IMG/VR virus record: IMGVR_UViG_3300017963_000225
Span: 1-64,000 of that record
Origin: a virus
Length of the DNA stretch: 64,000 bases
Reading direction: 5' to 3' (one strand)
In this document: one piece after another, positions 6,332-23,575 of the stretch
Numbering within the stretch: the stretch's first letter is position 1
Layout: each line of letters starts with the position of its first letter
The notes under the pieces: model-generated
What the model was told of the DNA's origin: nothing
Databases searched by the model: none
Seen by the model: only the letters and a program-made list of their open reading frames with translations
Position numbers and translations under genes: made by a program

Positions 6332-6540
6332 TTATGTCCGTTTATGAAGGTATCCCACTCAAGGGTCGCGCTTACCTGCTGTGGAAAGAGCTGTCGAAAG
6401 AAAAAACCTTTCCCGACTTGAGAGAGGCTTATAAGCACGCAATATTTCTCGCATCGAAGTGCCTTGAATACGGCAATTTCAAGGTGGATGAGTACGGCAA
6501 TGTTATTGATGAGGAGCAGAAAAATGAAAGTCAAGGTTGA
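6328..6540 (+). CDS. Hypothetical protein
   Basis: Overlap-coupled ORF in the operon. Confidence 0.5.
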   Translation: MIMSVYEGIPLKGRAYLLWKELSKEKTFPDLREAYKHAIFLASKCLEYGNFKVDEYGNVIDEEQKNESQG

Positions 6541-8799: not shown

Positions 8800-9744
8800 A
8801 TGAACAACTGGAACAATGCCCCGCAAGGTCAGAACGCACCAAGGCAACAGCCGCCGCCACCGCAAGCACCATTTGCCGGCGCTCAGCCAGCACCGCAGCC
8901 GACACGCTCGCTGGTCGGCTCGCTGACGGAGCAGCACCTTGCCAACATCCTTATCAAGGATGCCAAGATCGCCTTCGAGCTGAATTTTTTGAAGCTCCTG
9001 GCGAGAAAGCACGCCAACGTCGAGACGGCATTCTTTGTGGACTTTCTCTACAAGGCGCAGCTTTACGGCGCCGATCCGCGCCGCGACCAAATTTACCTTG
9101 TCACCTATAAGAAGAAGGAGAGGGGACCAGACGGCAGATGGGGCGAGCGTGAAGTCGCCAACGTCGTGTTCAGCTATCACTTCTATATGGCTAAAGCGGC
9201 TGCCAGCGGCTACCTGGCATCGACTCCGACCGTTCACACCGAAGTGATTGACTACTTCGACGTGAAGTCAGGGAGCTTTATTAAAACCATTGCGGCTTGC
9301 GCTCGCGTGAAGCGCCATGGCGCGACAAACGAGGCCGTCTATTGGGCACGCTTTCCAGAGTTTGCTAAAACCCGCCATGGCGAGAATGGACCTATCCTTG
9401 TCGGCCAATGGGCGGAAAAACCATACCTCATGCTTGAGAAGTGCGCGCTCGCCTGCGTGATGCGCCTGGCCTTCCCTGACGTGCTTGCCGGCATGTATGT
9501 GCAGGAGGAAATTACCGGCGAGGAGAGCCGCGACGGCGACGAGGGCATCGAGCTGGAGGCTAAGGAAGAACTCAGCATCGATGCGCCTCCGACCGGCCGT
9601 CAGCTTGCGCTCGATTCGGCGCCGGAATCGATCGACGTAATTGTCCAAGAGCCACGGTACGAGCCGGTTCGCCAAATCAGGAATGCCGCCGACATTCGGC
9701 AAGCCTTTAACGACATTCCGCCACCTGACAGCGGAGGGCGTTAA
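8800..9744 (+). CDS. RecT/Bet-family single-strand annealing protein
   Basis: GADPRRDQIYLV, W.EKPYLML.KCA...MRLAFP..LAGMY..EE; follows the exonuclease. Confidence 0.9.
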   Translation: MNNWNNAPQGQNAPRQQPPPPQAPFAGAQPAPQPTRSLVGSLTEQHLANILIKDAKIAFELNFLKLLARKHANVETAFFVDFLYKAQLYGADPRRDQIYLVTYKKKERGPDGRWGEREVANVVFSYHFYMAKAAASGYLASTPTVHTEVIDYFDVKSGSFIKTIAACARVKRHGATNEAVYWARFPEFAKTRHGENGPILVGQWAEKPYLMLEKCALACVMRLAFPDVLAGMYVQEEITGEESRDGDEGIELEAKEELSIDAPPTGRQLALDSAPESIDVIVQEPRYEPVRQIRNAADIRQAFNDIPPPDSGGR

Positions 9745-10133
9745 TGGGCAAGTGCATACGATGCGGCAGGCACTTAAAAAATCCAGACAGATTGGTCGGG
9801 AGACTGTGCGGTATGGTGCTGGGCTTATCGGTCAAGAATCAGTTTCGATCAGAAAAAACTGACGTTCCGGAGCACTGGAAGGTTATGACCAACCTCGCCA
9901 TGCGAGACATGCTCATGAAAGGCGAGGCGATCGACGTAAGCCAGTTCGATCGTACTCGACCCGAAGGCTTCTACGTGCTGCCGGACTTCAACGGCGACAA
10001 GGACTACTGCGACGCGCAGCGCGAGCTGTGGATCATGTCGATTGGACAGCACAAGAAAACTCGCCAGATCCTAGCCTCACCGACGACTGTCTTATTCCGA
10101 CACCCTGACTACGAGTGTTTGTTTCTCCGCTAA
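9744..10133 (+). CDS. Hypothetical protein with N-terminal CxxCGRxL Zn-finger-like motif
   Basis: MGKCIRCGRHLKNP; TAATG coupling. Confidence 0.55.
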   Translation: MGKCIRCGRHLKNPDRLVGRLCGMVLGLSVKNQFRSEKTDVPEHWKVMTNLAMRDMLMKGEAIDVSQFDRTRPEGFYVLPDFNGDKDYCDAQRELWIMSIGQHKKTRQILASPTTVLFRHPDYECLFLR

Positions 10134-10160
10134 ACATTCCCGCCACACTTCCCACCGCCG

Positions 10161-10190
10161 AGGGCGTCCAGAAATGGGCGCCCTTTCTGT
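10161..10190 (+). terminator. Intrinsic terminator at the convergence of early and late regions
   Basis: AGGGCGTCCA-GAAA-TGGGCGCCCT followed by TTCTGT. Confidence 0.6.
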
Positions 10191-10196
10191 CAACTG

Positions 10197-10460
10197 TCAC
10201 TGCTGACACCTGACGCACTCGTCAACTGACGGCTTGCCGCTATCGCTGCGATAGCGCCACCACTGCACCGATTCGATGCAGATCAAGACGAGCCAGTTTG
10301 CCATGAGTGGCCACAATGAGTAATGCCATGTGTAAACCAGCTTAACCACGCATCCGATCAGCCCAAGCAAATGCAGAAGCCCCCTATCCTTCACGAGAAA
10401 ACTCGTGATGAAGATAGAGGTCCCCAGCCACCCCAAGGTTGTCCACATGGCCTCGGTCAT
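10197..10460 (-). CDS. Small inner-membrane protein (about 3 TM, YgjV-like)
   Basis: Hydrophobic LGWLGTSIFITSFL, LHLLGLIGC and WPLMANWLVLIC segments; ATGA coupling. Confidence 0.6.
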   Translation of the reverse strand: MTEAMWTTLGWLGTSIFITSFLVKDRGLLHLLGLIGCVVKLVYTWHYSLWPLMANWLVLICIESVQWWRYRSDSGKPSVDECVRCQQ

Positions 10461-11020
10461 TTTGAAAACACCACAACCCAATAGTTGTTTACGACCGCAG
10501 CGCCCATCGACCGATTTTGTGCGTCTAGCATGGCTGCGCGATGCCCTGGACTAGCAAGCCATCCGTTTACGGCTTCCCGAGGGTTTCTGTGACCACACGC
10601 AATGATTTCGCTGCCGCTCACCATCTGAAAGCCGCATGCCTCGACGCGATCGACGAAGCTGGAGCTGTCGCCGCCAGCATGGGAACACATCCTTCGAGGG
10701 CCTATGTCATCGGCATGTCTTTGAGACGCGCACGAGAGAGCTTCCTCGGTCGAAAGAATGGGGAGGCTTCTGGACGCTCGCTCGCCATTAATGAGGAGGT
10801 AAAGCTTTGCTATTTCCTCCGTTGGGATCGGTGGAAAGTCAGGAATGTCTGGCGGGATCTCAGGCGGCAGGTCTGGCTCCTGAGGCAGTTCTGGTGGAAC
10901 GGGCCACACTGGCGGTGACTCGTCGGGAGTAGTTGGCTGCGGCGGCTGCGGCTCGTCCGAGTCGTCAGATGCACATCCGACTGTGGCCAATAGCAGTGAA
11001 AACAAGATTTTTTTCACCAT
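10457..11020 (-). CDS. CAP/SCP-domain lipoprotein
   Basis: Lipobox TVGC; Pro-rich linker; LINGER...A.RHA.D...SH.G.D...R...EIIA...AVNGWLASPGHRAAML. Confidence 0.88.
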   Translation of the reverse strand: MVKKILFSLLLATVGCASDDSDEPQPPQPTTPDESPPVWPVPPELPQEPDLPPEIPPDIPDFPPIPTEEIAKLYLLINGERASRSLPILSTEEALSCASQRHADDIGPRRMCSHAGGDSSSFVDRVEACGFQMVSGSEIIACGHRNPREAVNGWLASPGHRAAMLDAQNRSMGAAVVNNYWVVVFSK

Positions 11021-11391
11021 GACTGTTCAAACTCCCTTAGCTTAGAGACAAACTCGTCGAGCGAATACACCACGGCCACCTTGCATCCAGCCGAAATCAA
11101 TCGCTTATGCCAGTCCTTTTGATGCTTCTCGACACGGCCAGCAGGCAGGCTTTTGAACATGGTTTTTTGAGCGGGCGCCTTCAGCTCAAAGCCGTAGAGA
11201 GTTCCGGGACGGCTCCTCGAAATCACTACGATGTCGGGAAATCCGCGCATTGGATTGGCTGAAAACGACACCTTGGTTTTTCCACCACCCCTAACGATCG
11301 GCGACAGCGGCACGCGCCAATGCTCGAAACCGCTGTGCTCAAGCCAACCGAGCACTGCTTCGAGAACATAACCTTCACGAGTTTTTGCCAT
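11014..11391 (-). CDS. VRR-NUC family nuclease / resolvase-like
   Basis: E..V, GFPDI, FELKAP, Q..WH..L...G..VAVVYS. Confidence 0.8.
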   Translation of the reverse strand: MAKTREGYVLEAVLGWLEHSGFEHWRVPLSPIVRGGGKTKVSFSANPMRGFPDIVVISRSRPGTLYGFELKAPAQKTMFKSLPAGRVEKHQKDWHKRLISAGCKVAVVYSLDEFVSKLREFEQSW

Positions 11392-11605
11392 CTGCTTTCT
11401 CGTCTAGCCAAAGGACGACCGTTCGGCCGCCGTGCTCGTGAATGGCGATCAGGGTTTCAATGTCATCGTAGACGGCAACGCTGGTAAACCGCGTCAGCCA
11501 GTTGAGGGCGCATTTGCCGTTGGCGAATTGAACACCCTCGGCCACGATGCCAGTCCCGCTGACGCCGCTCACGTCCTCTTTGCGAGCCAGGTGAAACAAC
11601 CTCAC
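11375..11605 (-). CDS. Conserved phage hypothetical protein
   Basis: F.L.R.EDVSGVSGTG.VAEGVQF..G...L.W...HGG.T pattern recognised from phage proteins; GGAGGAG SD. Confidence 0.7.
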   Translation of the reverse strand: MRLFHLARKEDVSGVSGTGIVAEGVQFANGKCALNWLTRFTSVAVYDDIETLIAIHEHGGRTVVLWLDEKADGKNS

Positions 11606-11748
11606 GTTGTCTCCTCCGCCTTACGGTTAGGACACTCAGGCTTCTCGCACGGCGGCTTGCCGGCGCAGCGGTTGCGTTTCCCGAGTTTCCCGACAACCCA
11701 AGGAAGGACAAAACCAACAATACGAATTATGTCCCAAAATTTGCCCAT
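11602..11748 (-). CDS. 48-aa amphipathic/cationic peptide, candidate lysis accessory
   Basis: Below the ORF-track cutoff; MGKFWDIIRIVGFVLPWVVGKLGKRNRCAGKPPCEKPECPNRKAEETT; TAATG overlap with the amidase stop and GTGA overlap with the next gene. Confidence 0.65.
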   Translation of the reverse strand: MGKFWDIIRIVGFVLPWVVGKLGKRNRCAGKPPCEKPECPNRKAEETT

Positions 11749-12398
11749 TAGAGGCTCCCGAACATCGCTGATTTTTCTTCAAGTTTCTTACGAAACTCTC
11801 GCATGCTTGTTGGCAGAACGCCACCCGGATCGTACTTTCGACCGAGTGGAAGCGCTGCCTCGTCGTGACCAGCGATATTCTGCGGATCAATCCCGAGGGC
11901 GATAAACCACAAGCAGACATGCTCAAGCATGGTCACTTGTTTATCGGTCGCTTTGTCCCACCACCACATCTTCCCGTCGATGTTGTCTTTACGATATTCG
12001 GCATCCAATGAATCGACAGGCTCGCCTGACCACGACGACAACGACCCGTCTTCTTTTGATTCGGTCAGCCACCCCCAGCTAACCAACGCGATAGCCACAT
12101 GCCGTCGGTTTGGCGACACGCCGAGCCATGAAGCATTGCCGGCATGAGAAACTGCATTGTTTAGGTAAGCCGTCTGCGTGACCATCCCATCTCTGTCGAT
12201 AATGAGGTGATACCGCAAGTTGTTTTTTTTCAACTCGCGGAACACCCTGGAAATGTCTCGGTCGGCTGTATAATGAATCGTGATGCCTTGCGGACCACTG
12301 CTACCGAAAGAGTTCTTGAGGCCGAGGCCCGGCTCCTCGATTCGACCAACGAATGGGTAAATTGGTGGGATCAATCCATTTTTGGTTTTCGCAGTCAA
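11748..12398 (-). CDS. N-acetylmuramoyl-L-alanine amidase (Amidase_2), putative endolysin
   Basis: ITIHYTA, YHLIIDRDG...Q, SHAG, IAGHDE...RKYDPG. Confidence 0.9.
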   Translation of the reverse strand: MTAKTKNGLIPPIYPFVGRIEEPGLGLKNSFGSSGPQGITIHYTADRDISRVFRELKKNNLRYHLIIDRDGMVTQTAYLNNAVSHAGNASWLGVSPNRRHVAIALVSWGWLTESKEDGSLSSWSGEPVDSLDAEYRKDNIDGKMWWWDKATDKQVTMLEHVCLWFIALGIDPQNIAGHDEAALPLGRKYDPGGVLPTSMREFRKKLEEKSAMFGSL

Positions 12399-12703
12399 CT
12401 TCCCTCCAAATACGCCAAGAGCTTCGTTTTGTATTCAACCGGCAGTGTTGCAGGCGACGGTGGCATGCGTCCACTTTCGATAGCCGCCTTCACCTTCGGC
12501 GTCTTAAACGACGATTTTTTTGATAGGTCGAGCGGTTGTTTGACTCCGTTGTGACATTTAACACACGATTCTTTGACAATTGGCTTGATCGCGTCCCATT
12601 CTGGATCGCCCATCTGTTGGGGGGACGGCTCGCTCGATTCGTCATGGCCGCAACCAGTCGCCAAAAACAAAGCCATAAATAACCAGCCAACAAGCCTGAA
12701 CAT
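12395..12703 (-). CDS. Monohaem c-type cytochrome lipoprotein
   Basis: Start reassigned to ATG 12703 (AGGAG SD); lipobox LATGC; IKPIVKESCVKCH; distal GRMPP Met ligand. Confidence 0.8.
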   Translation of the reverse strand: MFRLVGWLFMALFLATGCGHDESSEPSPQQMGDPEWDAIKPIVKESCVKCHNGVKQPLDLSKKSSFKTPKVKAAIESGRMPPSPATLPVEYKTKLLAYLEGS

Positions 12704-12722
12704 CGTTTTTTTTCTCCTGTAT

Positions 12723-14609
12723 TCATCGTGGATCTTCAAACAGTCTTAGGTCGGCGATCACCGCCTGCAACGCCGTTGCGAACGTCTCGAATGGAATTGT
12801 CCCACCTGCAAAAAGCTGACCCCATTGGCTTCTCGCTGTCTGACTCTGATTGAGAATGATCTGGCACTCGCTCTTTCGTAGCCACAAGGTCCCGCATACC
12901 TTCGCCATATCCCATGGCAGAAGGTGTGAATCAGAAGCTGCCGTCACGGGCTCGGTTTGCGCCGACGTGTCAAGAGTCGTAAACCCGAGTCCTTTGAGCG
13001 ATTCAAAATAGTTGTCGTTCTCCAGTTTGATAAGCTCATTCACAACCGGCTGACTGTCGTACACGGCAAGAATCAGGTCGCGGTCATCCTTAAACTCCGA
13101 GCCATTCGCTGTGACGATAGCTCGTATTTGATCGGTGACTGGAAGGATGCCGGAAGCGTGACAACGGAAGCATGAGATGCCGGCCTGGATCTCTGACGAC
13201 ACAGGACTAACGAAATCACGCACGACGTTGACAGGAGCAACGTTCTGGAGCTGGTCGAGGTCGCTCCTGACAAAAACACCGTTGTTCACTGTCTGGCGAG
13301 CGTTGAACAAAGTGTAGCCTTGCAGTCCGTTCGGCAGCGTGTGGATGCACTCTCCCGCGATAAACTGCGCGTTGAGTTTGCCTCCAACGTCACCCAGTAA
13401 TGGAAAGTTGGAAAATGTTTTTTCTGGCGTGTCTATCGGGCCGGTGTCGTAAGTACACCACAGGCTTCCGTCTCGTGAGTCGTGAACGCTCAACATGCGG
13501 TTGTGAGGCGACAGCGGTGAGCCGACAAAAGCAGCGAGCGTAGCCTCGCGCTGCTGAAGGTCCTTAGCGTAGTCCACGCCGATCTGCTGAATGAACTGAT
13601 CGAAGTTGGCGGCCGTTTCCGTCAGGTTGTAGTAGACGGCAGCATTCCGAAACCCAGCGTCGATTAGTGAGCCGACGTGAAGCCACGGCTTCCGCGTGCC
13701 GGTGAGCAGCTTCAAAAGGTCGCCTTTTGAGGTCCTGCTCTCGATGTTCACCACGTCCGCGTTCTCGACCGCCTGCCATTCGCCGGCGTCGATCGCCACG
13801 TCGTCAAGGTCGAAGCGCCAAATGCCAGGGGCCACCTCGACCAGCTCGGCAAGCTCACGCTCAGTGCTCAGGCTATTGATGGCCTTCAGCGCCGCCTTCT
13901 CGTACAGCTCTAGCTGCTCGTCGGTGCCGCCGCTGTTGATAACGTCAGTCGCGACGAGGTATCGAGTCGTCACCCGGTTTTCAATACTTACCTTTGTCGT
14001 GTCCGTGATGTCCGCGATAATGGCCGCTTCCGACTCCTCGAAGGACTGAAAATCGAAGTCCCCCTCTCCATCACCCGGCTCAGCAGGCGACGGGCAAAGG
14101 CCGTCGATAATCCAATTCTCAAATGCCGAAATCTCATCGTCGGTGAGAGACGAATTTTTCGGCATGTGCTGCGGATCAGAAGGCGCGAGCCTGAAGCGCC
14201 TCAGGTACTCATCTGAGGAATTTTTGGCCTTCTCGAAGCTGTCGTAACCTCGATGGCACGAGCCAGTACAACTGCGCGTCAAAATCGGCTGCACGGTCGC
14301 AAAGGTCGTGTCGCCCGGAGCGCAATCTGGCGGTGGTTGTGTCTCGCAAGAATTCACCGCTTCTTTGTAGCCATCTGCCGTGCATACCAAAACAATGGTG
14401 CCGTCCTCACCCTCGCCGCAATCAAGCTCCTTGGTGCTGCCGATAGGATCGCTGTCGCACGACAACAAAGGCGCGGCGACCTGTACTTGCTCTTTCTCCG
14501 TCGAGCAGCCGGTCAACCTGTCGAGAAACACGGTCAATATCGAGGCGGTGATGAGAATTGTGGACAGTTTAAGCAAACGCCGAGCATCGCGAAGCTGTTG
14601 CTCTGTCAT
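12723..14609 (-). CDS. Large membrane-anchored/lipoprotein c-type cytochrome (two putative haem sites)
   Basis: N-terminal hydrophobic segment ending LTGC; VQPIL..SCTGSCH...HMP...L...EI..F..WI.DG cytochrome domain; second motif SCFRCH. Confidence 0.72.
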   Translation of the reverse strand: MTEQQLRDARRLLKLSTILITASILTVFLDRLTGCSTEKEQVQVAAPLLSCDSDPIGSTKELDCGEGEDGTIVLVCTADGYKEAVNSCETQPPPDCAPGDTTFATVQPILTRSCTGSCHRGYDSFEKAKNSSDEYLRRFRLAPSDPQHMPKNSSLTDDEISAFENWIIDGLCPSPAEPGDGEGDFDFQSFEESEAAIIADITDTTKVSIENRVTTRYLVATDVINSGGTDEQLELYEKAALKAINSLSTERELAELVEVAPGIWRFDLDDVAIDAGEWQAVENADVVNIESRTSKGDLLKLLTGTRKPWLHVGSLIDAGFRNAAVYYNLTETAANFDQFIQQIGVDYAKDLQQREATLAAFVGSPLSPHNRMLSVHDSRDGSLWCTYDTGPIDTPEKTFSNFPLLGDVGGKLNAQFIAGECIHTLPNGLQGYTLFNARQTVNNGVFVRSDLDQLQNVAPVNVVRDFVSPVSSEIQAGISCFRCHASGILPVTDQIRAIVTANGSEFKDDRDLILAVYDSQPVVNELIKLENDNYFESLKGLGFTTLDTSAQTEPVTAASDSHLLPWDMAKVCGTLWLRKSECQIILNQSQTARSQWGQLFAGGTIPFETFATALQAVIADLRLFEDPR

Positions 14610-14650
14610 GGGGCACCTATTGTGTTGTTTATGAGAGAATTATACTGCAC

Positions 14651-15688
14651 TTACAGGAAATAGTGAAACATCAGCGCGCCGCTGTTGGACGCTTCACCTT
14701 GCGAAAAGCTTCGCTTAGCTTGAGCGAGAAGCTCAAAGTGAGGGCGGGGAAACCATGAAGAAAATATTCCGAAACCGTAAAGATCGCCGTTCCTGTCCAA
14801 TGTTGGGCCGAAGTGAACGCCTCGATAATACTCCCAACCTAACTTAGCAACCGCGAGGTCTGTCGCCTCTCCGAATTCAAAATTTCGATCGTACTCAGCC
14901 AAAAAATAAAGGCTTTCGTCGGCGGCGGTAATCACATGCGCTCCGAGCGCCGTCTGCTCCCCGAGCTTGAGAAGGCTGAAACCGACCTGTGTCCTGTCTC
15001 CGAGGTAAAACGCCGACCGCACGGTGCCGCCGCTGCGCTCGCCGGACACAACCACAAATCCGTCGCCATCCGTCCCGACAACCGAGGCTCTCTTCCCGTA
15101 AACGCCGGAAACGAGCACCTCACCCCATTTGGTGACGAGGGCCGCTTCTGCGTTGTATGTCTCGCTGCCCTGCCCGAGCCCTAGCCCAAAGCGCGTTGGC
15201 AGCGTGTGGTCGGGAAAGTTGACGCCATACGCCGGAATGAAACGACCAAACCTAAAGTAAACATTTTCAATCGGTTGCACTTTTAGGTAAGTACGGCGAA
15301 ACTCCGAGTGACTGTCCCGCCCATAGAGGCCGACGGATCCAACCAGGGTAATCCCTTCAAATGGCATCACGGCGGCTTCGAGGTCCTTGTGCATCCAGAA
15401 CGGCCGCCCTTCGTCAGGGACGATCCAGCGGCTGTCGCCGCCGACCTCTACCCACCCGGGCAAGCTGGCGCCGTGGATGACGTTCTCCTCGCCCTTGCGC
15501 GACCAAGTGGTCATGGTCCGGCTCGCGCCGCGTCCATAGGTCGTCAGGACGTTGCCGCCGACCGCGCCAGACACATGGCAGGAAATGCACGACGGATATC
15601 CGTGGCGCACGAACTCTGGAAACGCCACGGATATCGTCGAAAACATCGCGCCGCAAATCAGCGCCGCTATTTGAAGCAAAATCCTCAC
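14651..15688 (-). CDS. Outer-membrane beta-barrel protein with N-terminal haem c motif
   Basis: Signal peptide; FPEFVRHGYPSCISCH...LTTYGR; alternating beta-strand pattern; aromatic C-terminus MFHYFL. Confidence 0.72.
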   Translation of the reverse strand: MRILLQIAALICGAMFSTISVAFPEFVRHGYPSCISCHVSGAVGGNVLTTYGRGASRTMTTWSRKGEENVIHGASLPGWVEVGGDSRWIVPDEGRPFWMHKDLEAAVMPFEGITLVGSVGLYGRDSHSEFRRTYLKVQPIENVYFRFGRFIPAYGVNFPDHTLPTRFGLGLGQGSETYNAEAALVTKWGEVLVSGVYGKRASVVGTDGDGFVVVSGERSGGTVRSAFYLGDRTQVGFSLLKLGEQTALGAHVITAADESLYFLAEYDRNFEFGEATDLAVAKLGWEYYRGVHFGPTLDRNGDLYGFGIFSSWFPRPHFELLAQAKRSFSQGEASNSGALMFHYFL

Positions 15689-16209
15689 TTTGAGATGATC
15701 CCTCTGACGATCACCGTAACATCCTTGGCGACAGTGATTTTCCCGTATTGGGGGATGCCAATCGCCGGATAATCAGTCAACGACACGACAAACTCAGCCC
15801 ACAGCTTGTTTCCCGACAAGCTCGCCAGTCCGCTGATTGGCTTCGTTTGTCCTTTCAGCGTCAGCTTCCCGGTCCAGGCAAATTTGTCTTTTGACACCTT
15901 CACCGGATCAAGAGCCAAGACCGCCTTCGGGTGAGCGGTCGTGTCAAGGTACTTGACCTTCATGTGGTCGTTTCGCAGCTCGTTTCCGGTGTCGAAGTCA
16001 GACAAATCGCACTCGAATGTTCCGCTGACCATTCCCTTCTCGTCAATTTTCCCGACCCCGGTCGCCTTGCCTCCTTTGCCGAATATTTTCACGACGCCAA
16101 GAGTGCTCTCGGCGCGCCATTCAACCTCGGCCCCTAGCTTCGCATCCGTTGCCGTCGCGAAGCTGGCTGAAAACCACGAGCACAGAATGAGAAGAATAAA
16201 ACGAGACAT
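15685..16209 (-). CDS. YceI-family periplasmic lipid/quinone-binding protein
   Basis: Signal peptide; DTGNELRNDHMK..YLD...HP, G.LTLKG.TKP, L.DY..IG.P. Confidence 0.88.
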   Translation of the reverse strand: MSRFILLILCSWFSASFATATDAKLGAEVEWRAESTLGVVKIFGKGGKATGVGKIDEKGMVSGTFECDLSDFDTGNELRNDHMKVKYLDTTAHPKAVLALDPVKVSKDKFAWTGKLTLKGQTKPISGLASLSGNKLWAEFVVSLTDYPAIGIPQYGKITVAKDVTVIVRGIISK

Positions 16210-16217
16210 TCGTCCCC

Positions 16218-16475
16218 TCACTTTTCGATGATTGCGCTGACAAGGGCCAGCACCGATTGCAAGGAACGCTCAGCCACTGCCGTCATCTCTTCGGGAGCGG
16301 CCGACCTAAACTCATCGTCGATTTTATCGCTTCCTTCAATCGCTAGACGAGCCGAAGCAATCAATGGAGCAAACTTCGGAATGTCCATCCAATTAATCAC
16401 GCCGTCGGCCTTGGCAGCCTTGATGGACTTCGCCAGCTCATCCACGAGCGCCAGCATTTCCAGTGTCTCTTTCAT
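16218..16475 (-). CDS. Helical hypothetical protein
   Basis: AGGAGG SD; ADGVINWMD motif; 85 aa. Confidence 0.6.
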   Translation of the reverse strand: MKETLEMLALVDELAKSIKAAKADGVINWMDIPKFAPLIASARLAIEGSDKIDDEFRSAAPEEMTAVAERSLQSVLALVSAIIEK

Positions 16476-16487
16476 CGCATACCCTCC

Positions 16488-17465
16488 TTAGAAAATTTGA
16501 TGAGTAGCCAGACCTCTCAGAAGCAAATAATCAAGCGCCGGCCCGATCCTTGGGCGTTCATCGCTCTCCCATTTGCAACGCTGATGCCGATAAGAATATC
16601 CAGACGATTCAGGGGAATATTCAGCCAGCCACCTCTGCGCTGGCTCTCTTTCGCACCAGTATTCTATCATAGGAACGCCCGTTCCTCGTGTCGCCTGACA
16701 CCAAGACAACCGCGAAAAACTTGAGACGGGCGAGTTGATGGCGTAGGCTGTAATCATCTGTAGCATGTTCAAATGCAGTGGATAGCACGGCTGTTTCGCA
16801 GCGACCGTTCCGCTTGCCGTTGCAATCATGTCTGTTTCAAACCTGTCTTTGGAAACTCGCGGCGCATCGCCAGTGATTCCGAAGAAATTGGCCACGCGAT
16901 CCCAAAGCCACCACAGGCCGCCGTTGATCTGTTTGTCCTCGCCAGCTCCCGGATAAAGACGGCCATTGCCCAATCCAGTCACATAGTCGCGATGCAGGGA
17001 CCACAACGCTGCAATCGCTTCCCTGTCCTCGGGGCATCGCCGCCAGCGCATCACCAGGCCGAAGGCGGTCCCAATCATGGCGTCACGGCTCGTGTCTACT
17101 CGATCAAGAGCTGGGTGGCGGTGAATCCGCCCGTCGTGGCTCGTGATGTTGTCGGCGACCGCTCGGAAAATACTGGCGCCGTCCTCGCACGACAGAACGC
17201 CAATTGCCAGGCCGCTGAATAGTGCGCTGTCGCCGCGCTCGTCTATTTCGTCGCCGTTCCTGGAGATGGGCATGCCTTCGTCGAGAAAGTCGCTGAGCAG
17301 CCTGGACACGAGGGCTTCATACTGATCGGGGACTGGAGCGTTCTCGGACGGCGGCAGGTCCGCTAGTGGGCTTGAAGGGGCGTCCTCATTTTTTCCTTGG
17401 CATCCAGCCAGAAGTAGAGCCGTTAGGAGCGCGCTTCCGATTCTTTTGTTCGCCGCCATAGCCAT
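16488..17465 (-). CDS. Lipoprotein of unknown function (helical enzyme-like)
   Basis: Start reassigned to 17465; lipobox LLAGC; GDSALFSG, GRIHRHP, SRDAMIG motifs. Confidence 0.65.
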   Translation of the reverse strand: MAMAANKRIGSALLTALLLAGCQGKNEDAPSSPLADLPPSENAPVPDQYEALVSRLLSDFLDEGMPISRNGDEIDERGDSALFSGLAIGVLSCEDGASIFRAVADNITSHDGRIHRHPALDRVDTSRDAMIGTAFGLVMRWRRCPEDREAIAALWSLHRDYVTGLGNGRLYPGAGEDKQINGGLWWLWDRVANFFGITGDAPRVSKDRFETDMIATASGTVAAKQPCYPLHLNMLQMITAYAINSPVSSFSRLSWCQATRGTGVPMIEYWCEREPAQRWLAEYSPESSGYSYRHQRCKWESDERPRIGPALDYLLLRGLATHQIF

Positions 17466-17694
17466 AAAGGCTTCTCCCCTCGATGATTTGAAGTCGATGG
17501 TCGTGTTCGTCGATTTCGTCCCGATTGGTCTGAAGCTGAGACACAACCTCAACCATTTTCAAATTCAAATCGTGAAGGCTGGCGCTCATGTCAGACAAGA
17601 ATTTGACGCCGAAACTGCAAAGTCCGATTATGGCCGCGAGAAACAACTGGTAAACGTACTGCGACACGTCTTGAGGAGATGAAGACAATGGCAA
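17386..17694 (-). CDS. Single-TM coiled-coil protein, putative holin/XhlA-like
   Basis: TTG start after GAGGAGG; TM LFLAAIIGLCSFGVKFL followed by a heptad coiled coil ending HDHRLQIIE. Confidence 0.45.
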   Translation of the reverse strand: MPLSSSPQDVSQYVYQLFLAAIIGLCSFGVKFLSDMSASLHDLNLKMVEVVSQLQTNRDEIDEHDHRLQIIEGRSLYGYGGEQKNRKRAPNGSTSGWMPRKK

Positions 17695-17701
17695 ACCCTC
17701 C

Positions 17702-18052
17702 TCATAAGTCCCTTCTTCTCTTTTCAAATCCCGATTTGAAAGGGACCGCCTCGTCGTAAAAAACCGGCTCAGGATCTTGGCTAGGAACGTCAATAATAAG
17801 CGGCTCAAGGTAATCGCCTTGCCCAAGGTAAACCGCCTCACTCAAGCATGAGTATTCAACGCTTTTGTCGTCGCCGCACTCTTTCAAGGAAAGACCGCAA
17901 TCCTCTTGGAGGTATTTGTCGCAAATGATTACGTCACCTCCAATGGACCATATTTCCCTTTGCTTTACCGGCTTCCCAGAAGCCGAGCATGCGCCGATCC
18001 ATGACGCGGCGCATACGACTAGGAAGTAAATGAGTGTATGGTGCATCGTCAC
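17702..18052 (-). CDS. Small Cys-containing lipoprotein
   Basis: Lipobox-like WIGAC; four further Cys residues. Confidence 0.55.
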   Translation of the reverse strand: MTMHHTLIYFLVVCAASWIGACSASGKPVKQREIWSIGGDVIICDKYLQEDCGLSLKECGDDKSVEYSCLSEAVYLGQGDYLEPLIIDVPSQDPEPVFYDEAVPFKSGFEKRRRDL

Positions 18053-18059
18053 ACTCCTA

Positions 18060-19253
18060 TTAGAACCGTCCCATCAAAATCCAACGGCTAAGCGTGCCGT
18101 TGTAGATAGCCATGACTGACCCGCGAATTCCGAACGCAATAGAGTTATTTTGTGTGCAGGCACTGCCGGCAGTTGTTGACCATTCGATCCTTGAAGACGA
18201 GCTGCCCTCGGATGACGAATTGCATACAATGCTCATCGTTTGCCCCGAGGCATTGTTGATGACCATCATGTGCCCATCCGACACGAAAGTGCCGATTCCG
18301 TGGACCGCGAATGGAGATGTCGCTGTTATGAAATTTATGTAACCAGTCGTCGGGTTTAAGTTGTTATGGTCCCAGTTTCCGGTTGAGGCTACGTTAACGT
18401 TGTAATTTTCTAGCCTCGTAGTTCCCAGACTTAGATAGGCTGTCCCCCTAATGACATGCTGAACTCCTCCGCCAGATGGCCCTAAAGTCCAAGCACCGGC
18501 CGGACTTGTTTCCCCGATATTTACGCCGTTTCCAGAGAAGGCGATCTGGTCAGCGCCAGGGCTGAAAATGCCTGTATTCAAGTCTCCTAGGATCGAGAAA
18601 GCCGGAGCTGATACCGAACCTCCAGCTGCTGCTACTTGCCCGTTGCCGTAGATGATGAACTTGTCAGTAGATGTGTTCGTCCTTACCTTCAACACCTCTT
18701 GAGAGACGCTGTTGGAGGCACTTGTTACTTGAAGACCGAAGCCTGTAGCTGAGGTGTTGAAGATCCGAGCGATCCAGTTGCCTGGTACGGACGAGCTTGC
18801 CTCTAACAAATAGGTTGGCGAGGTTGTCCCGATTCCGACATTCCCGCCACTGTCTATTCGCATGCGCTCAGTGTCGTTCGACCGAAGAACAAATGGGTGA
18901 TTTGTTGTCGTTCCGACATACATCGTGGTGTCGGTGCCGTTGTAGCCAAACACCCCTTGAACGGTCGCATCTCCGCGTCTGACAATCAGGTTGTCATTGT
19001 CGCCGGCTGCTCCTGTCCCGGTAACGACCATCGTCGTTGTGGTGGACTGTCCCGTAATGTCAAGTCCAAGCAAGGCGTTGAGAGAGCCGGTCGCTCCATC
19101 AATCGACATCGCCTTCGTCGGCGTGCCGCTCGGTGACACGTAGAAATCCATATCCTGATCGGTCTTGGTTTCCTTGATCGTCCAAGCGCCGGCAAGCGAA
19201 GCAAGTCCAACCAAAAAACATGAAGCCACGATGGCGCGGCTTAACCTCTTCAT
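18060..19253 (-). CDS. Tail-fibre-like adhesin with signal peptide
   Basis: MKRLSRAIVASCFLVGLASLAGA signal; ERMRIDSGGNVGIGTTSP and GSVSAPAFS..GDLNTGIFSPGADQIAF fibre shaft motifs. Confidence 0.75.
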   Translation of the reverse strand: MKRLSRAIVASCFLVGLASLAGAWTIKETKTDQDMDFYVSPSGTPTKAMSIDGATGSLNALLGLDITGQSTTTTMVVTGTGAAGDNDNLIVRRGDATVQGVFGYNGTDTTMYVGTTTNHPFVLRSNDTERMRIDSGGNVGIGTTSPTYLLEASSSVPGNWIARIFNTSATGFGLQVTSASNSVSQEVLKVRTNTSTDKFIIYGNGQVAAAGGSVSAPAFSILGDLNTGIFSPGADQIAFSGNGVNIGETSPAGAWTLGPSGGGVQHVIRGTAYLSLGTTRLENYNVNVASTGNWDHNNLNPTTGYINFITATSPFAVHGIGTFVSDGHMMVINNASGQTMSIVCNSSSEGSSSSRIEWSTTAGSACTQNNSIAFGIRGSVMAIYNGTLSRWILMGRF

Positions 19254-19277
19254 AAAAACACCTCCATTCGCTTCGGA

Positions 19278-19499
19278 TTATTCTTTGTCGCAGTCGATAA
19301 TCATGTTGCTGTGATTGGCTCGATCGCCGTCTACGTCCCACAATACGACAACGCACTTGTGTCCAAGATAGTTTGTTCCGTACACCTGACTGGAAAAATT
19401 ATTCCCATCGATTTTTCCAAGATGCTCTACGCCGCTTGGCTGCATTGTTGCACAACCGGAAGCGAGCATAATGCCAATGCTGAATACAACAAGTTTCAT
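19278..19499 (-). CDS. Small lipoprotein
   Basis: MKLVVFSIGIMLASGC lipobox. Confidence 0.65.
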   Translation of the reverse strand: MKLVVFSIGIMLASGCATMQPSGVEHLGKIDGNNFSSQVYGTNYLGHKCVVVLWDVDGDRANHSNMIIDCDKE

Positions 19500-19509
19500 A
19501 GCGCCCTCG

Positions 19510-19578
19510 TCACGTTTTGATGATGTAGTTCACGGTCAGGAACGGGTACGGCCGTTCACGCTCGCTTGCACTGGTCAT
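19510..19578 (-). pseudogene. 22-aa minigene or remnant encoding a second tail-collar C-terminal motif
   Basis: MTSASERERPYPFLTVNYIIKT*, paralogous to the GPAVVVNYIVKY* end of the upstream gene. Confidence 0.6.
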
Positions 19579-19585
19579 GCCGACC

Positions 19586-20509
19586 TCAATACTTGACGAT
19601 ATAGTTCACGACGACGGCTGGACCGACGTTGCTGAATGCAGTGCCACTTCCGGTTGTCCCGGTAACGCCTGTGTAATTTGGTAGGTCAACGCTATGCAGA
19701 TGCGACGAACCTGGCCCGGAAGTCCCGCTGAAATTTGGCGGATCGATGCTGTGGCTGTGCGATCCGTCTGCTTCGGTCTGCTCGGTTGAGTCAGCGCCGA
19801 CGCCAGTCACGCCTCGGATCAGAGATTGACTGCCGCCAGTTGAACGGCTTGTCGTAATGATGTGAGCATGAGGACCGTCGTTAGCTGATGAGAATGCTCC
19901 GTGGTCGTGACTAATGCTATGATTATGCCCACTCTCGGACGAAGAGTTCTGCGCAGCATGGTTGTGATCGTTCGTATGGTTGTGCGACGGCAAATTAGCT
20001 GTAGCGAGAGACGATGATTGCGATCCGCCTGACGCCCCGAGAGTCACACCGTCGACTCCAGATCCACCAGATGTGAGGCGATTCGCCGCAACGCCTCCCA
20101 TATTGTCCTTTCCGAATGCAGCGCGCCCGCGCATATCGGGGATATTAAACGTAGTCGTTCCGTTCCCGGCACCGTAGGATGTCCCGATGGCAGCGAACAG
20201 AGCCGCGTAGGTCGTGCGTGACACGGCCGTGCCATCGGCCAGAAGCCATCCAGTCGGAGCAGACGAGCCCGCAAAGGGCATCAAGGCCCCAGGAGGGACG
20301 CCGCCTGATGACGCTGGAAGCGGCTCGGTCAACGAAACGACGCCGCTCGCGCCAGAGATGCTCATCACATCCTTGACGGTGCCGCCGCTGTTGACCCGGA
20401 TGACGACGTTTCCGTTGTTGTCTGGATTGTAGATAACCCTGTCGCCTGCGAAGGCGGGTAGTGAGGAAACTCCAAGTCCGAAAAGTAGAGAAATGAGAAA
20501 ACTTTTCAT
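19586..20509 (-). CDS. Phage tail-collar domain fibre protein with signal peptide
   Basis: MKSFLISLLFGLGVSSLPAFA signal; PPGALMPFAG..APTGWLLADG.AVSRTTYAALFAAIGT.YG.G.G.TTFN.PD.RGR collar; HxH metal-binding needle repeats; VNYIVK end. Confidence 0.9.
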   Translation of the reverse strand: MKSFLISLLFGLGVSSLPAFAGDRVIYNPDNNGNVVIRVNSGGTVKDVMSISGASGVVSLTEPLPASSGGVPPGALMPFAGSSAPTGWLLADGTAVSRTTYAALFAAIGTSYGAGNGTTTFNIPDMRGRAAFGKDNMGGVAANRLTSGGSGVDGVTLGASGGSQSSSLATANLPSHNHTNDHNHAAQNSSSESGHNHSISHDHGAFSSANDGPHAHIITTSRSTGGSQSLIRGVTGVGADSTEQTEADGSHSHSIDPPNFSGTSGPGSSHLHSVDLPNYTGVTGTTGSGTAFSNVGPAVVVNYIVKY

Positions 20510-20525
20510 TACTTGCCTCTATGTA

Positions 20526-21413
20526 TTACTGATAATTTGCACAAAGACACGCCCTGGTTCCAGAAGTCGTGGCGCAGCTCACACTGGTTGATGTGATTCT
20601 GACGGCGGCTATACAGATTACGCCGCTGCCAGAGTTCAAACATGCAGTGTCACAGGTGTCCCCTCCATTCGAGGCAGTAACTGCGAACATACTGACGGCT
20701 CCGATGGCCACTCCTGTCGTCACTCCGTAAGCGGGCACATAAAACTTTCCAGTCGTTCTGACCTCTTGTGAGCCAAAATCAGGAGATATTTTTGTACCGG
20801 CGATTGCTGCCGAAGCACTGACGTGAGTATTACTCACCGCGCTTGATGCCAATTCAGACGAGGTAATGGCGTTCGCGCCAATCTGTGTAGACGTCAAAGT
20901 GTCGTTAACGAGCTTGCCGCCAGTAATCGTGGTGTTGGCGATCTTGCCACCTGTGATCGTGGTGTTAGCGATATCACCGTCAGCGATCGTGCCGTCCAAA
21001 ATGTTCGTACTGTTTATGATGCCCGTACCACCGATGGCGGACGAGAATGTCTTCGCTCCGCTGATCGTCTGCGTTCCCTGCTTCATTACGAAGTCTTGAT
21101 CGGCTGTCGCCGAGCTTGGGAAGTTGACTGTGGTGCTTATTCCGGTGCCGCCGAGCGTCTTGGACAGAGGAGTCGTGAGGCCGGTGACTGTCGTGGTGCT
21201 CAGTCCATACGGTGCGGATATTGCGCCAGTCGATCCAGTGACCGTCAAGGCGTCCGTCTTTACTCCGTTGTCGTTGACGCGCAGAACTAGATCGCCGTCT
21301 ACTGCCGGATTTTCGATAACCCGGCGTGTTCCAGTGTTGCTATCCGCGAGCGCGATGCTCGTCAAAAAAAACGCCAAAAAACAGACAAAATAAACTAGGC
21401 AAAACTTACGCAT
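20526..21413 (-). CDS. Fibre-like protein with signal peptide and Cys-rich tip
   Basis: Start reassigned to 21413 (TGATG coupling); MRKFCLVYFVCFLAFFLTSIALA signal; QTISGAKTFS and ITGGKIANTT shaft repeats; six-Cys C-terminus. Confidence 0.7.
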   Translation of the reverse strand: MRKFCLVYFVCFLAFFLTSIALADSNTGTRRVIENPAVDGDLVLRVNDNGVKTDALTVTGSTGAISAPYGLSTTTVTGLTTPLSKTLGGTGISTTVNFPSSATADQDFVMKQGTQTISGAKTFSSAIGGTGIINSTNILDGTIADGDIANTTITGGKIANTTITGGKLVNDTLTSTQIGANAITSSELASSAVSNTHVSASAAIAGTKISPDFGSQEVRTTGKFYVPAYGVTTGVAIGAVSMFAVTASNGGDTCDTACLNSGSGVICIAAVRITSTSVSCATTSGTRACLCANYQ

Positions 21414-23575
21414 CAAATCGTACCTCCCCATACTTCGACGCTCCCCGCGACACCATCGTTGTCCACCAGATCGATATTCGTAATCGCCGCTGATCCGTTG
21501 GTTTTGTGAACATTCACCCTCACAAAAGCACGGTTGGCCGCAGCATCCACATAAACTGGGTCTGTGAACGTCTGCGCTGCATTCAGCTCAAGCAAGCACT
21601 GCTCAACCACACAGTTGACAGCCTCGACGCTGAGCCCGCGAGCCTGCGTGCCTGACGGTGTGAGCTGGAAGCGTGAGCGACCGAGCACCGCCACCCGCGC
21701 AGCCGTCAACCGCACGCCATTGGTGAGTGCTCCCGATAGCCGCACCTGCGCGTCCCTGGCAAAGACGATCTGGAGGCCGGCGACATTGATGTCGAGGTCC
21801 CCAGCCGGCTCATCGGTGTCCCGCTGTACGAGGATTTGGTCATTGATGCCGCTGGCCGCGATTGCATCCGTCAGCGTAGTGTAGGTTCCTGGACCTCTGC
21901 CGACCACCCGCGTCATGCCGCCCTGGTCGTATGGCACCGCCTGAAGCAGCGGACGGCCGCCGACGCAAATGCGATATGCTAGGGCATCACCCGAGCCCGC
22001 CTCGACGAATGGCACGCCCACCCAATCGAAATTGAAGTTGGTGTCGTCGAAGCTCTCGACGATCGCGCTGCGGTCGATGTTGCGAATGGCGCCCGTGACG
22101 AGGTTTTTCTCCTGCACCTCGTAGGAACGCACCAGCTCGTAGTCGGCAACCCCGTGAGCGACCGAAGCAGGGCCAGCAGCCGTGTACCAGCCGAATGGCC
22201 CGGTGTCTGTCGCGGGCGAGGCCACCGTCTTTAGATCCGGGTAGTAGTAGGCGACGACATACAGTGTGCGCCCACCGCCATATCCAGGTGAAGGCACGCT
22301 GTCAGGATTGATTTTGACCTGCGTCAAGCTTTTGGCGACGACGAAGTTGAGCCAGTCCTGTGGCTTGTTCTCCGTGCCGTCATACCAGTACGCTTCAAAC
22401 CACTGCGGCTGCCCTGAGAGGTTGTGGCCAAGCGTCTGCTCGCCACCGGCTGCCGTGAAGCTGAACACCTTGCGCTCGACATAAGGGAAGAAGGACGCCA
22501 CGGTGTCGTGAACGCGGCCAGGCTTTTGATAAACCTCGCTTCCAGTCCAGTCCACCCCGCCGACCGCCGTCTTGATCTGGTCAATATAGACGTAGCGGCG
22601 AGGATCAAGGTTTTCCGGGTCGTGCGTGGTGTGCGGGAAAAGGCGCAGGTTAGCCTCTCCCCACTGAAGGATTTTGCGCTTGGTGTCCGTCATGCGGACG
22701 GGATCGCTCAAGGTCGCGAGGTCGATCGCCAGCGTATAAAGCGTGTCAGCCGCAAAAACCAATCCGCTATTGGTAAGAATAGTCGCTGCGCTCACCGAGA
22801 GGTTGACGCCGGTTAGCGTCTTGGTGAGGCCCGCCGTGCCACTGGCAAGCACCCGGCTGTCGTCGAGCGGATAGAAGCCGCCTTTGATGGCCAGTGTGGT
22901 GCCGGCCGCGTTCGTCACCTTGTAGGTGCGGTCACTGCCGCCACCGCCGCCGCCGCCAGCGCCGAAGCGGTAGATGCGGATATCGCTTCCGACCTTGTTC
23001 TGGATCACCGACGAAGCCGAGCCCGCTGTCTTGAAGGCATTTGCAGCCGTCGCTTCAAGGTCGATCCATCCAAGCGGCAAGCCCTCCAACGCGCTGAAAA
23101 GGGCGCCTGGGTTTGCCGTCGTGTCAGCGTTGAGCGTGGTCATGTCGGCAAACGCCGAGCTAAATTTTGCAGCGAGGCTGCCGTCGCTCTGGAGCGCAAA
23201 GCAGCAGCGCCGCACCTGGCCGACGGTGGTCGTCGGCAAGGCAAAGGCTACGCCGTCCACCGTGACGACAACACCACCAGACACGACGCCGGTTTGAAAA
23301 TTGATGGTGAAGCCGACCGGCGTGAATGGAACGATGTCGTCAACCGGAGGAACGGCCTTCCCGCTGCCGTCGCCAGCTTCGATGAGGGCCGAGGCGAAGT
23401 TGAGCAGGGCATCTGGAGTCGCACTCGCGAACATCCTGAGGGGTGACTCAAAATGTTTGTCAAGTCGCGGCAAAAACCCAGTTTCCAGGTTTTCGCCGGC
23501 TACAGCCCCTATCACCGACCTCGCCGCAAGCAGTTTAAGCTCGTCGGTGAAGCCTTTCTGAAGGTTGATTGTCAT
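21413..23575 (-). CDS. Virion structural / tail appendage protein with C-terminal beta-helix-like region
   Basis: Position after the baseplate genes; poly-Gly hinge; GTYTTLTDAIAA..NDQILV motif typical of the start of a beta-helix. Confidence 0.55.
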   Translation of the reverse strand: MTINLQKGFTDELKLLAARSVIGAVAGENLETGFLPRLDKHFESPLRMFASATPDALLNFASALIEAGDGSGKAVPPVDDIVPFTPVGFTINFQTGVVSGGVVVTVDGVAFALPTTTVGQVRRCCFALQSDGSLAAKFSSAFADMTTLNADTTANPGALFSALEGLPLGWIDLEATAANAFKTAGSASSVIQNKVGSDIRIYRFGAGGGGGGGSDRTYKVTNAAGTTLAIKGGFYPLDDSRVLASGTAGLTKTLTGVNLSVSAATILTNSGLVFAADTLYTLAIDLATLSDPVRMTDTKRKILQWGEANLRLFPHTTHDPENLDPRRYVYIDQIKTAVGGVDWTGSEVYQKPGRVHDTVASFFPYVERKVFSFTAAGGEQTLGHNLSGQPQWFEAYWYDGTENKPQDWLNFVVAKSLTQVKINPDSVPSPGYGGGRTLYVVAYYYPDLKTVASPATDTGPFGWYTAAGPASVAHGVADYELVRSYEVQEKNLVTGAIRNIDRSAIVESFDDTNFNFDWVGVPFVEAGSGDALAYRICVGGRPLLQAVPYDQGGMTRVVGRGPGTYTTLTDAIAASGINDQILVQRDTDEPAGDLDINVAGLQIVFARDAQVRLSGALTNGVRLTAARVAVLGRSRFQLTPSGTQARGLSVEAVNCVVEQCLLELNAAQTFTDPVYVDAAANRAFVRVNVHKTNGSAAITNIDLVDNDGVAGSVEVWGGTI

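Follow-up and report, generated by a model that had tools for sequence, protein, structure and literature searches.

What would a phage do with a set of exported haem proteins encoded among its lysis genes? The question arises from IMG/VR virus record IMGVR_UViG_3300017963_000225, of which bases 1-64000 were analysed here (this whole stretch of 64,000 nucleotides is called the window throughout). Its minus strand holds, at 12395-16221, four co-oriented genes for exported proteins: a YceI-family lipocalin, a monohaem cytochrome fused to an outer-membrane barrel, a large lipoprotein with two haem c motifs and a small lipoprotein cytochrome c. We refer to these four genes as the cassette. An original prediction, made from the letters of the DNA, had described four contiguous exported proteins at this place, and the four open reading frames (ORFs) are all present. 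We found that the cassette is a real, mobile viral module, common to otherwise unrelated uncultured phages. Our reading of its role is tentative, with a probability of roughly 0.45: the four genes may form a conserved mobile phage operon through which an infected Gram-negative cell acquires, in its outer envelope, a short electron-transfer chain of haems.

The YceI lipocalin and the haem barrel

YceI proteins bind isoprenoid quinones and lipids. The first product of the cassette aligns with the YceI profile PF04264 over positions 10-146 of 150 and scores 61.4 bits against a cut-off of 23.7 (E 1.7e-16), so that the family identity proposed for it holds.

CxxCH motifs in exported proteins mark substrates of cytochrome c maturation. 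The second product carries a single motif of this kind, CISCH, behind a signal peptide (MRILLQIAALICGAMFSTISVA) with its cleavage site between SVA and FPEF; the sequence directly after this site is FPEFVRHGYPSCISCH. Such an N-terminus is a trait of the family, since the consensus [AS][FY]PE[MF][VI]RHGYxxCxxCHVSPxGGGxLTxYGR was carried by 164 of the 168 full-length members read (alignment A3). In the body of the barrel, M99 and H161 are invariant in the same alignment. These two residues are candidate distal (sixth) haem ligands, which would place the haem inside the pore. The AlphaFold model of the protein (mean predicted local distance difference test score, pLDDT, 80.6) has about 18 strands and an internal loop with a helix. 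Its best Foldseek matches were the general and phosphate porins OmpU, OmpF and OprP, with E-values from 1e-11 to 1e-8 (OprP, 2o4v, 1.9e-8). Both elements of the expected beta-barrel with an N-terminal CISCH are therefore found, the porin fold in the model and the haem motif after the signal peptide.

The barrel family has no Pfam, NCBIfam or PHROG name. Searched against 1.8 billion proteins, its profile retrieved 2,569 representative clusters at E ≤ 1e-3, of which 811 remain at E ≤ 1e-30. Database gene calls start the barrel at an internal ATG (the 287-residue form P0040) and drop both the signal peptide and the haem motif, so that automated annotation hides the cytochrome nature of the protein. 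The longer N-terminus is kept in twenty homologues.

The large and small lipoprotein cytochromes

The 628-residue product had been taken for a membrane-anchored protein. It is a lipoprotein instead, as its hydrophobic stretch ends in the lipobox LTGC and C35 is invariant (alignment A1). Five parts can be told apart in the chain: residues from about 50 to 95 make up a Cys-rich module, those from about 99 to 173 a monohaem cytochrome c domain, and a helical domain then leads to a beta-rich domain for the second haem, with CFRCH at 480-484, and to a helical C-terminal domain. The two haem c motifs foreseen in this protein are strictly kept: the first (C114-x3-C118-H119, with M149-P150) and the second (C480/C483/H484) are invariant in 34 homologues, the first being CX3CH in the window phage and CxxCH in most homologues. 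When 52 phage and cellular sequences were aligned together, C480/C483/H484 were present in all 52, C114/C118/H119 in 47-49, and M149-P150 in 47 and 51. The residues that never vary in this alignment are K242, Y326, S364, R371, C480, C483, H484, G487 and D493, and across the 52 sequences no second His or Met is conserved for the second haem. This pattern suggests a His/Met electron-transfer haem at the first site and, at the second, a haem that is either open in its coordination or ligated by Lys or Tyr.

The AlphaFold model of the large protein has a pLDDT of 88.8, rising above 95 for residues 190-628. It had no significant Foldseek match in PDB or BFVD, and the profile of the protein gave only E > 0.2 against PDB sequences. 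With VIA, which is independent of Foldseek, residues 99-173 weakly matched the monohaem PccH and the iron oxidase FoxE (Z 5.4-5.7). The second haem domain (about 322-529) weakly matched the cytochrome P460 / c'-beta structures 8brk, 6hiu, 7s5o and 6amg (Z 4.2-5.8), the best scores, 5.5-5.8 over residues 330-498, belonging to 8brk (cytochrome c') and 6hiu. Low as their scores are, the VIA matches are coherent. When this domain was aligned by hhalign with 15 cellular P460-family proteins, P was 2e-4 and the probability 48%, over 36 columns only (the last hairpin and the CxxCH). The phage large protein matches neither PF16694 nor any other Pfam family at E ≤ 0.01, and we treat the P460 likeness of its second haem domain as a lead. 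Cellular homologues reach 28-32 bits with PSCyt1 (PF07635; cut-off 22) in their N-terminal haem domain and distant database matches carry the same Pfam domain, the phage protein having no match to it at the E-value given above.

The large lipoprotein is a virus-associated clade, apart from its cellular paralogues. A maximum-likelihood tree of the family has two clades (Shimodaira-Hasegawa-like approximate likelihood ratio test, SH-aLRT, 100), one with all cellular loci and the other with P0001-P0035 and the viral locus L002. Members of the second clade with a readable context (the window, L051, L052 and L002) are all on phage contigs. Protein Atlas clusters of the C-terminal domain (435 residues) have a viral share (Uroviricota) of 56-80%, and bacterial proteins listed there have the same C-terminal fold (TM-score 0.85-0.90) fused to PSCyt1, WD40 or DUF4384. 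A distant homologue of the large protein was also found in a metagenome-assembled genome from Lake Pavin sediment.

The small protein is a monohaem lipoprotein, in agreement with the original prediction, and has the lipobox LATGC followed by CVKCH...MPP. Its match to PF13442 (Cytochrome_CBB3) is weak (E 6e-5) and below the cut-off. The gene probably starts at ATG 12703, given the AGGAG 9 nucleotides upstream, and would then encode a 102-residue precursor. With this start, a 19-nucleotide spacer follows the large gene instead of an overlap. The small gene lies 3' of the large gene in the window and in L051, L052, L002/3, L058, L059, L074, L076, L077, L078 and L080.

Haem motifs are concentrated in the cassette. 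The whole phage proteome contains four CxxCH motifs, against 0.11 expected from its amino-acid composition, and three of the four are in adjacent cassette proteins. No phage protein has more than two CxxCH or CX3CH motifs, and none is multihaem. CcmF and CcsA are not encoded by the phage, so the host must supply cytochrome c maturation.

Recurrence in unrelated phages

The full order YceI - barrel - large - small was found in four phage loci, namely the window, L052, L076 and L077, and about ten further loci have part of the set or a rearranged form of it; a search for this four-gene synteny, which had been put forward as a check, thus found it beyond the window. L052, a JGI contig, reads p354 - p85 - YceI - barrel - large - small, where p354 and p85 are homologues of the two genes preceding the cassette in the window; it also encodes a homologue of the head-cargo protein of the window phage, which makes it a relative. 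The IMG/VR contigs include, besides L076 and L077 with the full set, two with barrel - large - small (L074 and L078), one with large - small and, about 2.5 kb further on, YceI - barrel (L058), one that begins with YceI - barrel (L057), one with large - small (L080) and two with the large gene only (L075 and L079). In L002/L003, likewise from IMG/VR, the order is large - small - further dihaem cytochrome (L002) - terminase. L051, a Hainich groundwater contig, has an SLT transglycosylase followed by large - small. L057 and L058 were found by a DNA pattern for the haem motif, a first barrel pattern scan of IMG/VR having given none. In L078, a gap of 636 bp (5891-6527) at the place where L076 and L077 have YceI holds no intact YceI ORF, and the gene may have been lost or broken there.

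PHROG hallmarks (terminase, portal, major head, baseplate, endolysin, RecE and Sak4) confirm that these contigs are viral. In an all-against-all comparison (E ≤ 1e-6), all that they share with the window outside the cassette is the amidase, the gene p85 and, in L076, one tail-fibre-like protein. The nearest phage relatives are 53-59% identical, with saturation at synonymous sites, and the range across the viral contigs is 25-59%, with ORFs intact and motifs conserved. All eight phage barrels belong to a single subfamily, which has support in the tree of cellular barrels; one change is enough to place the phage label on the tree, and none of 500 label shuffles equalled this. The conserved order, and the fact that these genes are common to unrelated phages together with lysis genes, indicate that selection acts on the operon in the virus.

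Among 50,697 GenBank phage records, tblastn detected no homologue of the barrel or of YceI, and for the large protein one weak match, in an uncultured 595-kb phage. Within these records the claim that no phage equivalent had been described is upheld. The matching locus (L059, LR756511.1, 482984-485560) has the large gene followed by one for an exported CxxCH protein (small), and extends the large-small pair to very large phages.

Cellular counterparts

A search of genome contigs with the profile of alignment A2 had one find, a distant cellular locus. Our survey of cellular genomes covered 131 species of the phylum that holds Oligoflexus and was centred on the distant cellular locus L004. Of these genomes 68 contain the barrel family, frequently with more than one copy, and among the database relatives of the barrel one carries the name Oligoflexus sp. 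In all ten long cellular loci a cytochrome c gene adjoins the barrel gene, encoding in most of them a lipoprotein with one or two PSCyt1-type domains. Five of these loci have a YceI gene alongside as well, which frequently overlaps the barrel gene and is translationally coupled with it. The phage YceI, barrel and small cytochrome thus correspond to a widespread cellular module. The literature on YceI with cytochrome c and porin, and on phage-borne Cyc2 or CxxCH proteins, yielded no description of it.

The relatives of the large protein behave differently in cells. They are stand-alone lipoproteins of 630-675 residues with the same two haem sites and no conserved neighbours, and at least five paralogues occur in one genome (G074). 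In another genome, G069, a lipoprotein scoring above the Pfam P460 cut-off is encoded directly upstream of a cytochrome c - YceI - barrel set (L021 10179-10799, G069:C31). Its position parallels that of the large haem lipoprotein in the phage operon.

Genomes of this phylum also contain a second barrel family, of 390-535 residues, with two N-terminal haem motifs (NCxGCHxPGR....CTLxCQGCHxxPSGGG). It was seen in L037-L050, for example at L042 1432-2607 and L045 1578-2807 in G074. At L024 5824-7035, such a two-haem-motif barrel lies beside a four-haem c3/c7-type cytochrome and a monohaem barrel cassette.

Genome setting and gene layout

The virus record is 91,634 bp long, with a measured direct terminal repeat of 123 bp and a CheckV completeness of 100%. 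No tyrosine or serine recombinase (integrase) was found in the complete phage genome, and the phage is probably strictly lytic, judging from its gene content. A temperate lifestyle with lysogenic conversion was rejected as far as integrases go. As there is no integrase, expression of the cassette must fall in lytic infection.

Continuity of the DNA across the cassette had been named as a point to verify. The region 9000-20000 is spanned by one long contig in each of two Logan assemblies (86.9 kb and 52.5 kb), with 0 differences and even depth. The two runs, one of a sediment and one of a seawater metagenome, belong to different studies and are possible sources of the record, for which reason they speak for contiguity and not for independent occurrence. 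Among the public runs listed for this stretch, none was of RNA. The G+C content of the cassette, 0.54-0.56, matches the remainder of the phage genome.

The cassette lies in a long minus-strand operon that encodes tail fibres and an Amidase_2 endolysin (Table 1). Three tail-fibre genes (18060-21431) are directly upstream, among them members of PHROG tail families at 18060-19253 and 19586-20509. The three overlap-coupled junctions of the original prediction, including the one with the amidase gene, are real: the start and stop codons share 4 nucleotides at p85/YceI (GTGA), YceI/barrel (GTGA) and small/amidase (TTGA, behind GGAGG), and the YceI/barrel overlap is present in L052 and L057 too. Promoter-like and terminator-like sites of the region are no commoner than in shuffled sequence, and the TATAAT in the spacer between the barrel and large genes is only a hint of a promoter.

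Table 1. Genes and spacer of the cassette region, in order of transcription (positions in the window)
Feature	Position	Strand	Evidence or remark
p85, soluble protein of 85 residues	16218..16475	-	No hydrophobic segment; no Pfam or PHROG match
YceI-family lipocalin, exported, 178 residues	15685..16221	-	PF04264; signal peptide
Monohaem cytochrome fused to outer-membrane porin-fold barrel, 345 residues	14651..15688	-	Alignment A3; AlphaFold; Foldseek
Barrel/large spacer, 41 nucleotides	14610..14650	-	Promoter-like TATAAT; AGGTG ribosome-binding site
Large lipoprotein, 628 residues, two haem c motifs	12723..14609	-	Alignment A1; AlphaFold
Small monohaem lipoprotein cytochrome c	12395..12739	-	CVKCH...MPP; 114 residues from TTG, likelier 102 from ATG 12703
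Amidase_2 endolysin	11748..12398	-	PF01510, E 1.4e-14; PHROG amidase/endolysin

The lysis block

The cassette had been placed between a putative holin and an amidase. Its location within a lysis block, beside the Amidase_2 endolysin, is correct; the holin is not. The supposed holin, p85, has no hydrophobic segment and hence no transmembrane segment, and was rejected as a holin on this ground. Homologues of p85 are nevertheless found beside the cassette in L052 (385-972), L076 (5013-5309), L077 (5036-5296), L078 (5059-5337) and L079. In L077 and L078 the p85 homologue directly precedes the amidase gene and the cassette follows, whereas in the window the cassette stands between the two; the amidases of L077 and L078 are homologous to that of the window, with E-values of 1e-38 and 1e-44. 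Since a p85 homologue directly precedes a homologous amidase in other phages, p85 belongs to the lysis block, and it is a candidate lysis-associated factor, for example a regulator of the holin or endolysin.

Other genes nearby may have lysis roles. Downstream of the amidase gene, 10197-11020 encodes two further proteins: one of 94 residues, which with its roughly three hydrophobic helices makes a better candidate for the holin than p85, and a lipoprotein with a CAP domain (PF00188). Upstream of the cassette lies the gene for p151 (17386-17841), in which a single transmembrane segment precedes a coiled coil. Its 3' end overlaps with a gene for a lipoprotein of 354 residues whose N-terminus is rich in proline (p354, 16488-17552). 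By its sequence features this layout looks like an i-spanin/o-spanin pair, with an unusually long lipoprotein. The cassette lipoproteins were themselves considered as two-component spanins and rejected, because they have no membrane-anchored coiled-coil partner and both carry haem domains; p151/p354 is the better candidate pair. In L074, L076, L077 and L078 the cassette ends the late operon and converges on genes of the opposite strand for a RecE/YqaJ-type exonuclease and a Sak4-like annealing protein.

Comparison with known systems

Cyc2, a porin with a single haem, oxidises Fe(II) at the cell surface, and the electrons go on to cytochromes of the periplasm (PMC8406198, PMC7029218). The phage barrel resembles the Cyc2 proteins of A. 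ferrooxidans and Mariprofundus (Cyc2PV-1) in its signal peptide, in a near-N-terminal CxxCH after an A-x-P-x-F-x-R-like stretch, in the fused OprP/OprO-like barrel and in having a small cytochrome partner. Published criteria for Cyc2 are the motif AxPxFAR[QK][TY], PxL 4 residues after CXXCH, a length of at least 365 residues and a 16-strand porin like OprO/OprP (Keffer et al. 2021, PMC8406198). The phage stretch AFPEFVRHG fits the motif at four of seven positions (A, P, F and R), with differences at A, Q/K and T/Y. There is no PxL after its haem site, where the window has CHVSGAVGGNVL and the family CHVSPxGGGxLTxYGR, and the protein is shorter, at 345 residues, with about 18 predicted strands instead of 16. 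It is also phage-carried, and its partners are YceI and a dihaem lipoprotein. Compared solely by the published criteria, the barrel has the Cyc2 design but lacks the full motif and the PxL, and it is shorter than the stated minimum.

BcnA-LcoA (E. coli YceI-YceJ) likewise couples a periplasmic YceI lipocalin genetically with a haem protein and is proposed to act on envelope lipophiles by redox chemistry; there the lipocalin and a cytochrome b561 detoxify envelope lipid peroxyl radicals (Naguib et al. 2022, PMC9113575). The predicted haem partners of the phage system are c-type and outer-membrane or lipid-anchored, in contrast to the inner-membrane b561. No match to cytochrome b561 (PF01292) was found in the complete phage genome, by a search that was positive in control genomes. 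The second haem domain of the large protein recalls the P460 and c'-beta cytochromes (PF16694; 6hiu, 6amg, 7s5o, 8brk) as a beta-sheet haem c domain with a C-terminal CxxCH and without a protein sixth ligand. It differs from them in being embedded between two helical domains without known relatives, and the similarity is weak.

In the MtrCAB, MtoAB and PioAB systems, a 26-strand barrel sheathes a decahaem cytochrome. The cassette shares with them the combination of an outer-membrane barrel and c-type cytochromes. An MtrAB/PioAB-type porin-cytochrome complex was rejected, as there is no multihaem protein and the barrel, of only 345 residues, has one fused haem. Of the trans-envelope redox or uptake module that had been proposed, what stands is an envelope haem module in a bona fide virus, and the Mtr/Pio-type complex falls away.

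Phages are known to carry redox genes that serve photosynthesis or sulfur oxidation. Cyanophage psbA, petE and PTOX are auxiliary genes of electron transport, and a soxD cytochrome c has been found in phages as well (PMC8190135). Like these, the cassette represents host-derived redox proteins kept under selection in phages. The known examples, however, are single cytoplasmic, thylakoid or periplasmic parts of named host pathways, whereas here a four-gene set for the outer envelope, from unnamed families, lies in a lysis block.

Possible functions of the cassette

If the cassette provides a short electron-transfer chain, its genes would be transcribed late with the lysis genes, the four products exported and the haems attached by host cytochrome c maturation. 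The barrel would insert in the outer membrane, the haem peptide at its N-terminus lying in the pore or beside it, as in the Cyc2 design, with M99 or H161 as a possible sixth ligand. Electrons could then pass from the haem porin to the small lipoprotein cytochrome, on to the His/Met haem of the large lipoprotein and finally to its open second haem. The conserved polar pocket around the second haem (K242, Y326, S364, R371 and D493) may be a reaction site for a small molecule, candidate substrates being peroxide, NO and hydroxylamine, or else a radical of a lipid or quinone that YceI would deliver. A unit of this kind would be self-sufficient in the outer membrane and periplasm and need no inner-membrane partner, which would explain its movement between phages. 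The benefit might be to keep or reset the redox state of the envelope in the last phase of infection. What the data show is how the genes are built, that their products carry export signals and are under long-term constraint, their fold class, their recurrence in phages and their origin from cellular families; haem attachment, the path of the electrons, the substrate and the gain for the phage belong to the proposal.

Several points weigh against this electron-transfer chain. Newly matured outer-membrane cytochromes could be of use to a lytic phage for a short time only. The model of the barrel is poor at the haem peptide (pLDDT < 50 for residues 17-36), and the position of this peptide in the pore is assumed. 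Structural matches of the haem domains of the large protein are weak (Z < 6, and 36 columns by hhalign). As to the host, gene relatedness and G+C content do no more than hint at Oligoflexia. Finally, the company that the cassette keeps with two unrelated types of endolysin fits a role in lysis at least equally well.

In such a role the module would be an accessory of lysis, either weakening the outer membrane, for example by haem-catalysed oxidation of lipids handled by YceI, or making the timing of lysis depend on the envelope's redox or energy state. The endolysin that adjoins the cassette is of the Amidase_2 type in L077, L078 and the window and of the unrelated SLT type in L051; the cassette is inserted between p85 and the amidase in the window, two genes that are neighbours in L077 and L078; and cassette, p85 and amidase are the only genes common to otherwise unrelated phages. 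To this can be added that the large lipoprotein forms a virus-associated clade and is not a recent host copy, and that two of the four products are outer-membrane lipoproteins, like o-spanins. Yet the barrel-YceI-cytochrome trio is common in cells without a link to lysis, cellular paralogues of the large protein stand alone, and in L002/3, L075 and L057 the cassette genes adjoin packaging genes instead. A spanin-like pair (p151/p354) may already exist upstream, and the ends of late operons commonly host accessory genes anyway. On balance we regard a lysis accessory as doubtful, although it is the strongest competitor of the electron-transfer chain. The more specific proposal that the operon, above all the dihaem lipoprotein and the small cytochrome, is a redox-driven lysis component, acting as a late outer-membrane haem enzyme system that weakens the membrane or gates the moment of lysis, seems to us quite unlikely.

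The Cyc2 architecture (signal peptide, single N-terminal CxxCH, OprP-like porin) invites an interpretation in terms of energy, in which the haem porin takes up electrons from extracellular Fe(II) or a soluble donor, or delivers them outward, and feeds the host respiratory chain for virion production. A small cytochrome partner, as in the Cyc2-Cyc1 pathway, the VIA matches of the N-terminal domain of the large protein to FoxE and PccH, and the Lake Pavin sediment homologue agree with it. We nonetheless judge such an energy-yielding auxiliary module unlikely: the defining motifs and minimum length of Cyc2 are missing, the phage encodes nothing that would connect the module with an inner-membrane oxidase or bc1 complex, heterotrophic or predatory lineages that are not known iron oxidisers commonly have the cellular module, and a simple relay could do without an open-coordination haem such as that of the large protein. 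Superinfection exclusion or receptor remodelling, with the phage versions replacing or masking a host outer-membrane receptor as T5 Llp does for FhuA, would suit products that are outer-membrane proteins and lipoproteins, the place of the cassette directly downstream of the tail-fibre genes and the separate branches that phage barrels form within the host family. Masking, however, needs neither three strictly conserved haem motifs nor an electron-carrier partner, and four coupled genes go far beyond the known exclusion lipoproteins, which makes this explanation very unlikely. That the genes are passengers without function for the phage, or an artefact of assembly, is extremely improbable. Both runs with this DNA may be its source, but the cassette genes occur on more than a dozen viral contigs as intact ORFs with conserved motifs at 25-59% identity, the assembled contigs across it are continuous at even depth, the genome is complete with a direct terminal repeat and the G+C content is like that of the rest of the phage.

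Implications

A four-gene haem operon for the outer envelope, with its order conserved in several phages and tied to lysis genes, was not previously known, and no description exists of a virus with an outer-membrane haem pore and its carriers. If the operon proved to be a redox-driven lysis component, this would be a kind of lysis function without known precedent, and if the module more generally belongs to lysis, a new lysis principle. If instead it carries electrons within the outer envelope or across it, phages can reshape the redox chemistry at the surface of their hosts. The operon offers a testable setting for two undescribed families: a large group of haem porins of Cyc2 design that accompanies YceI and a small carrier, and a 435-residue haem domain that is common in uncultured phages.

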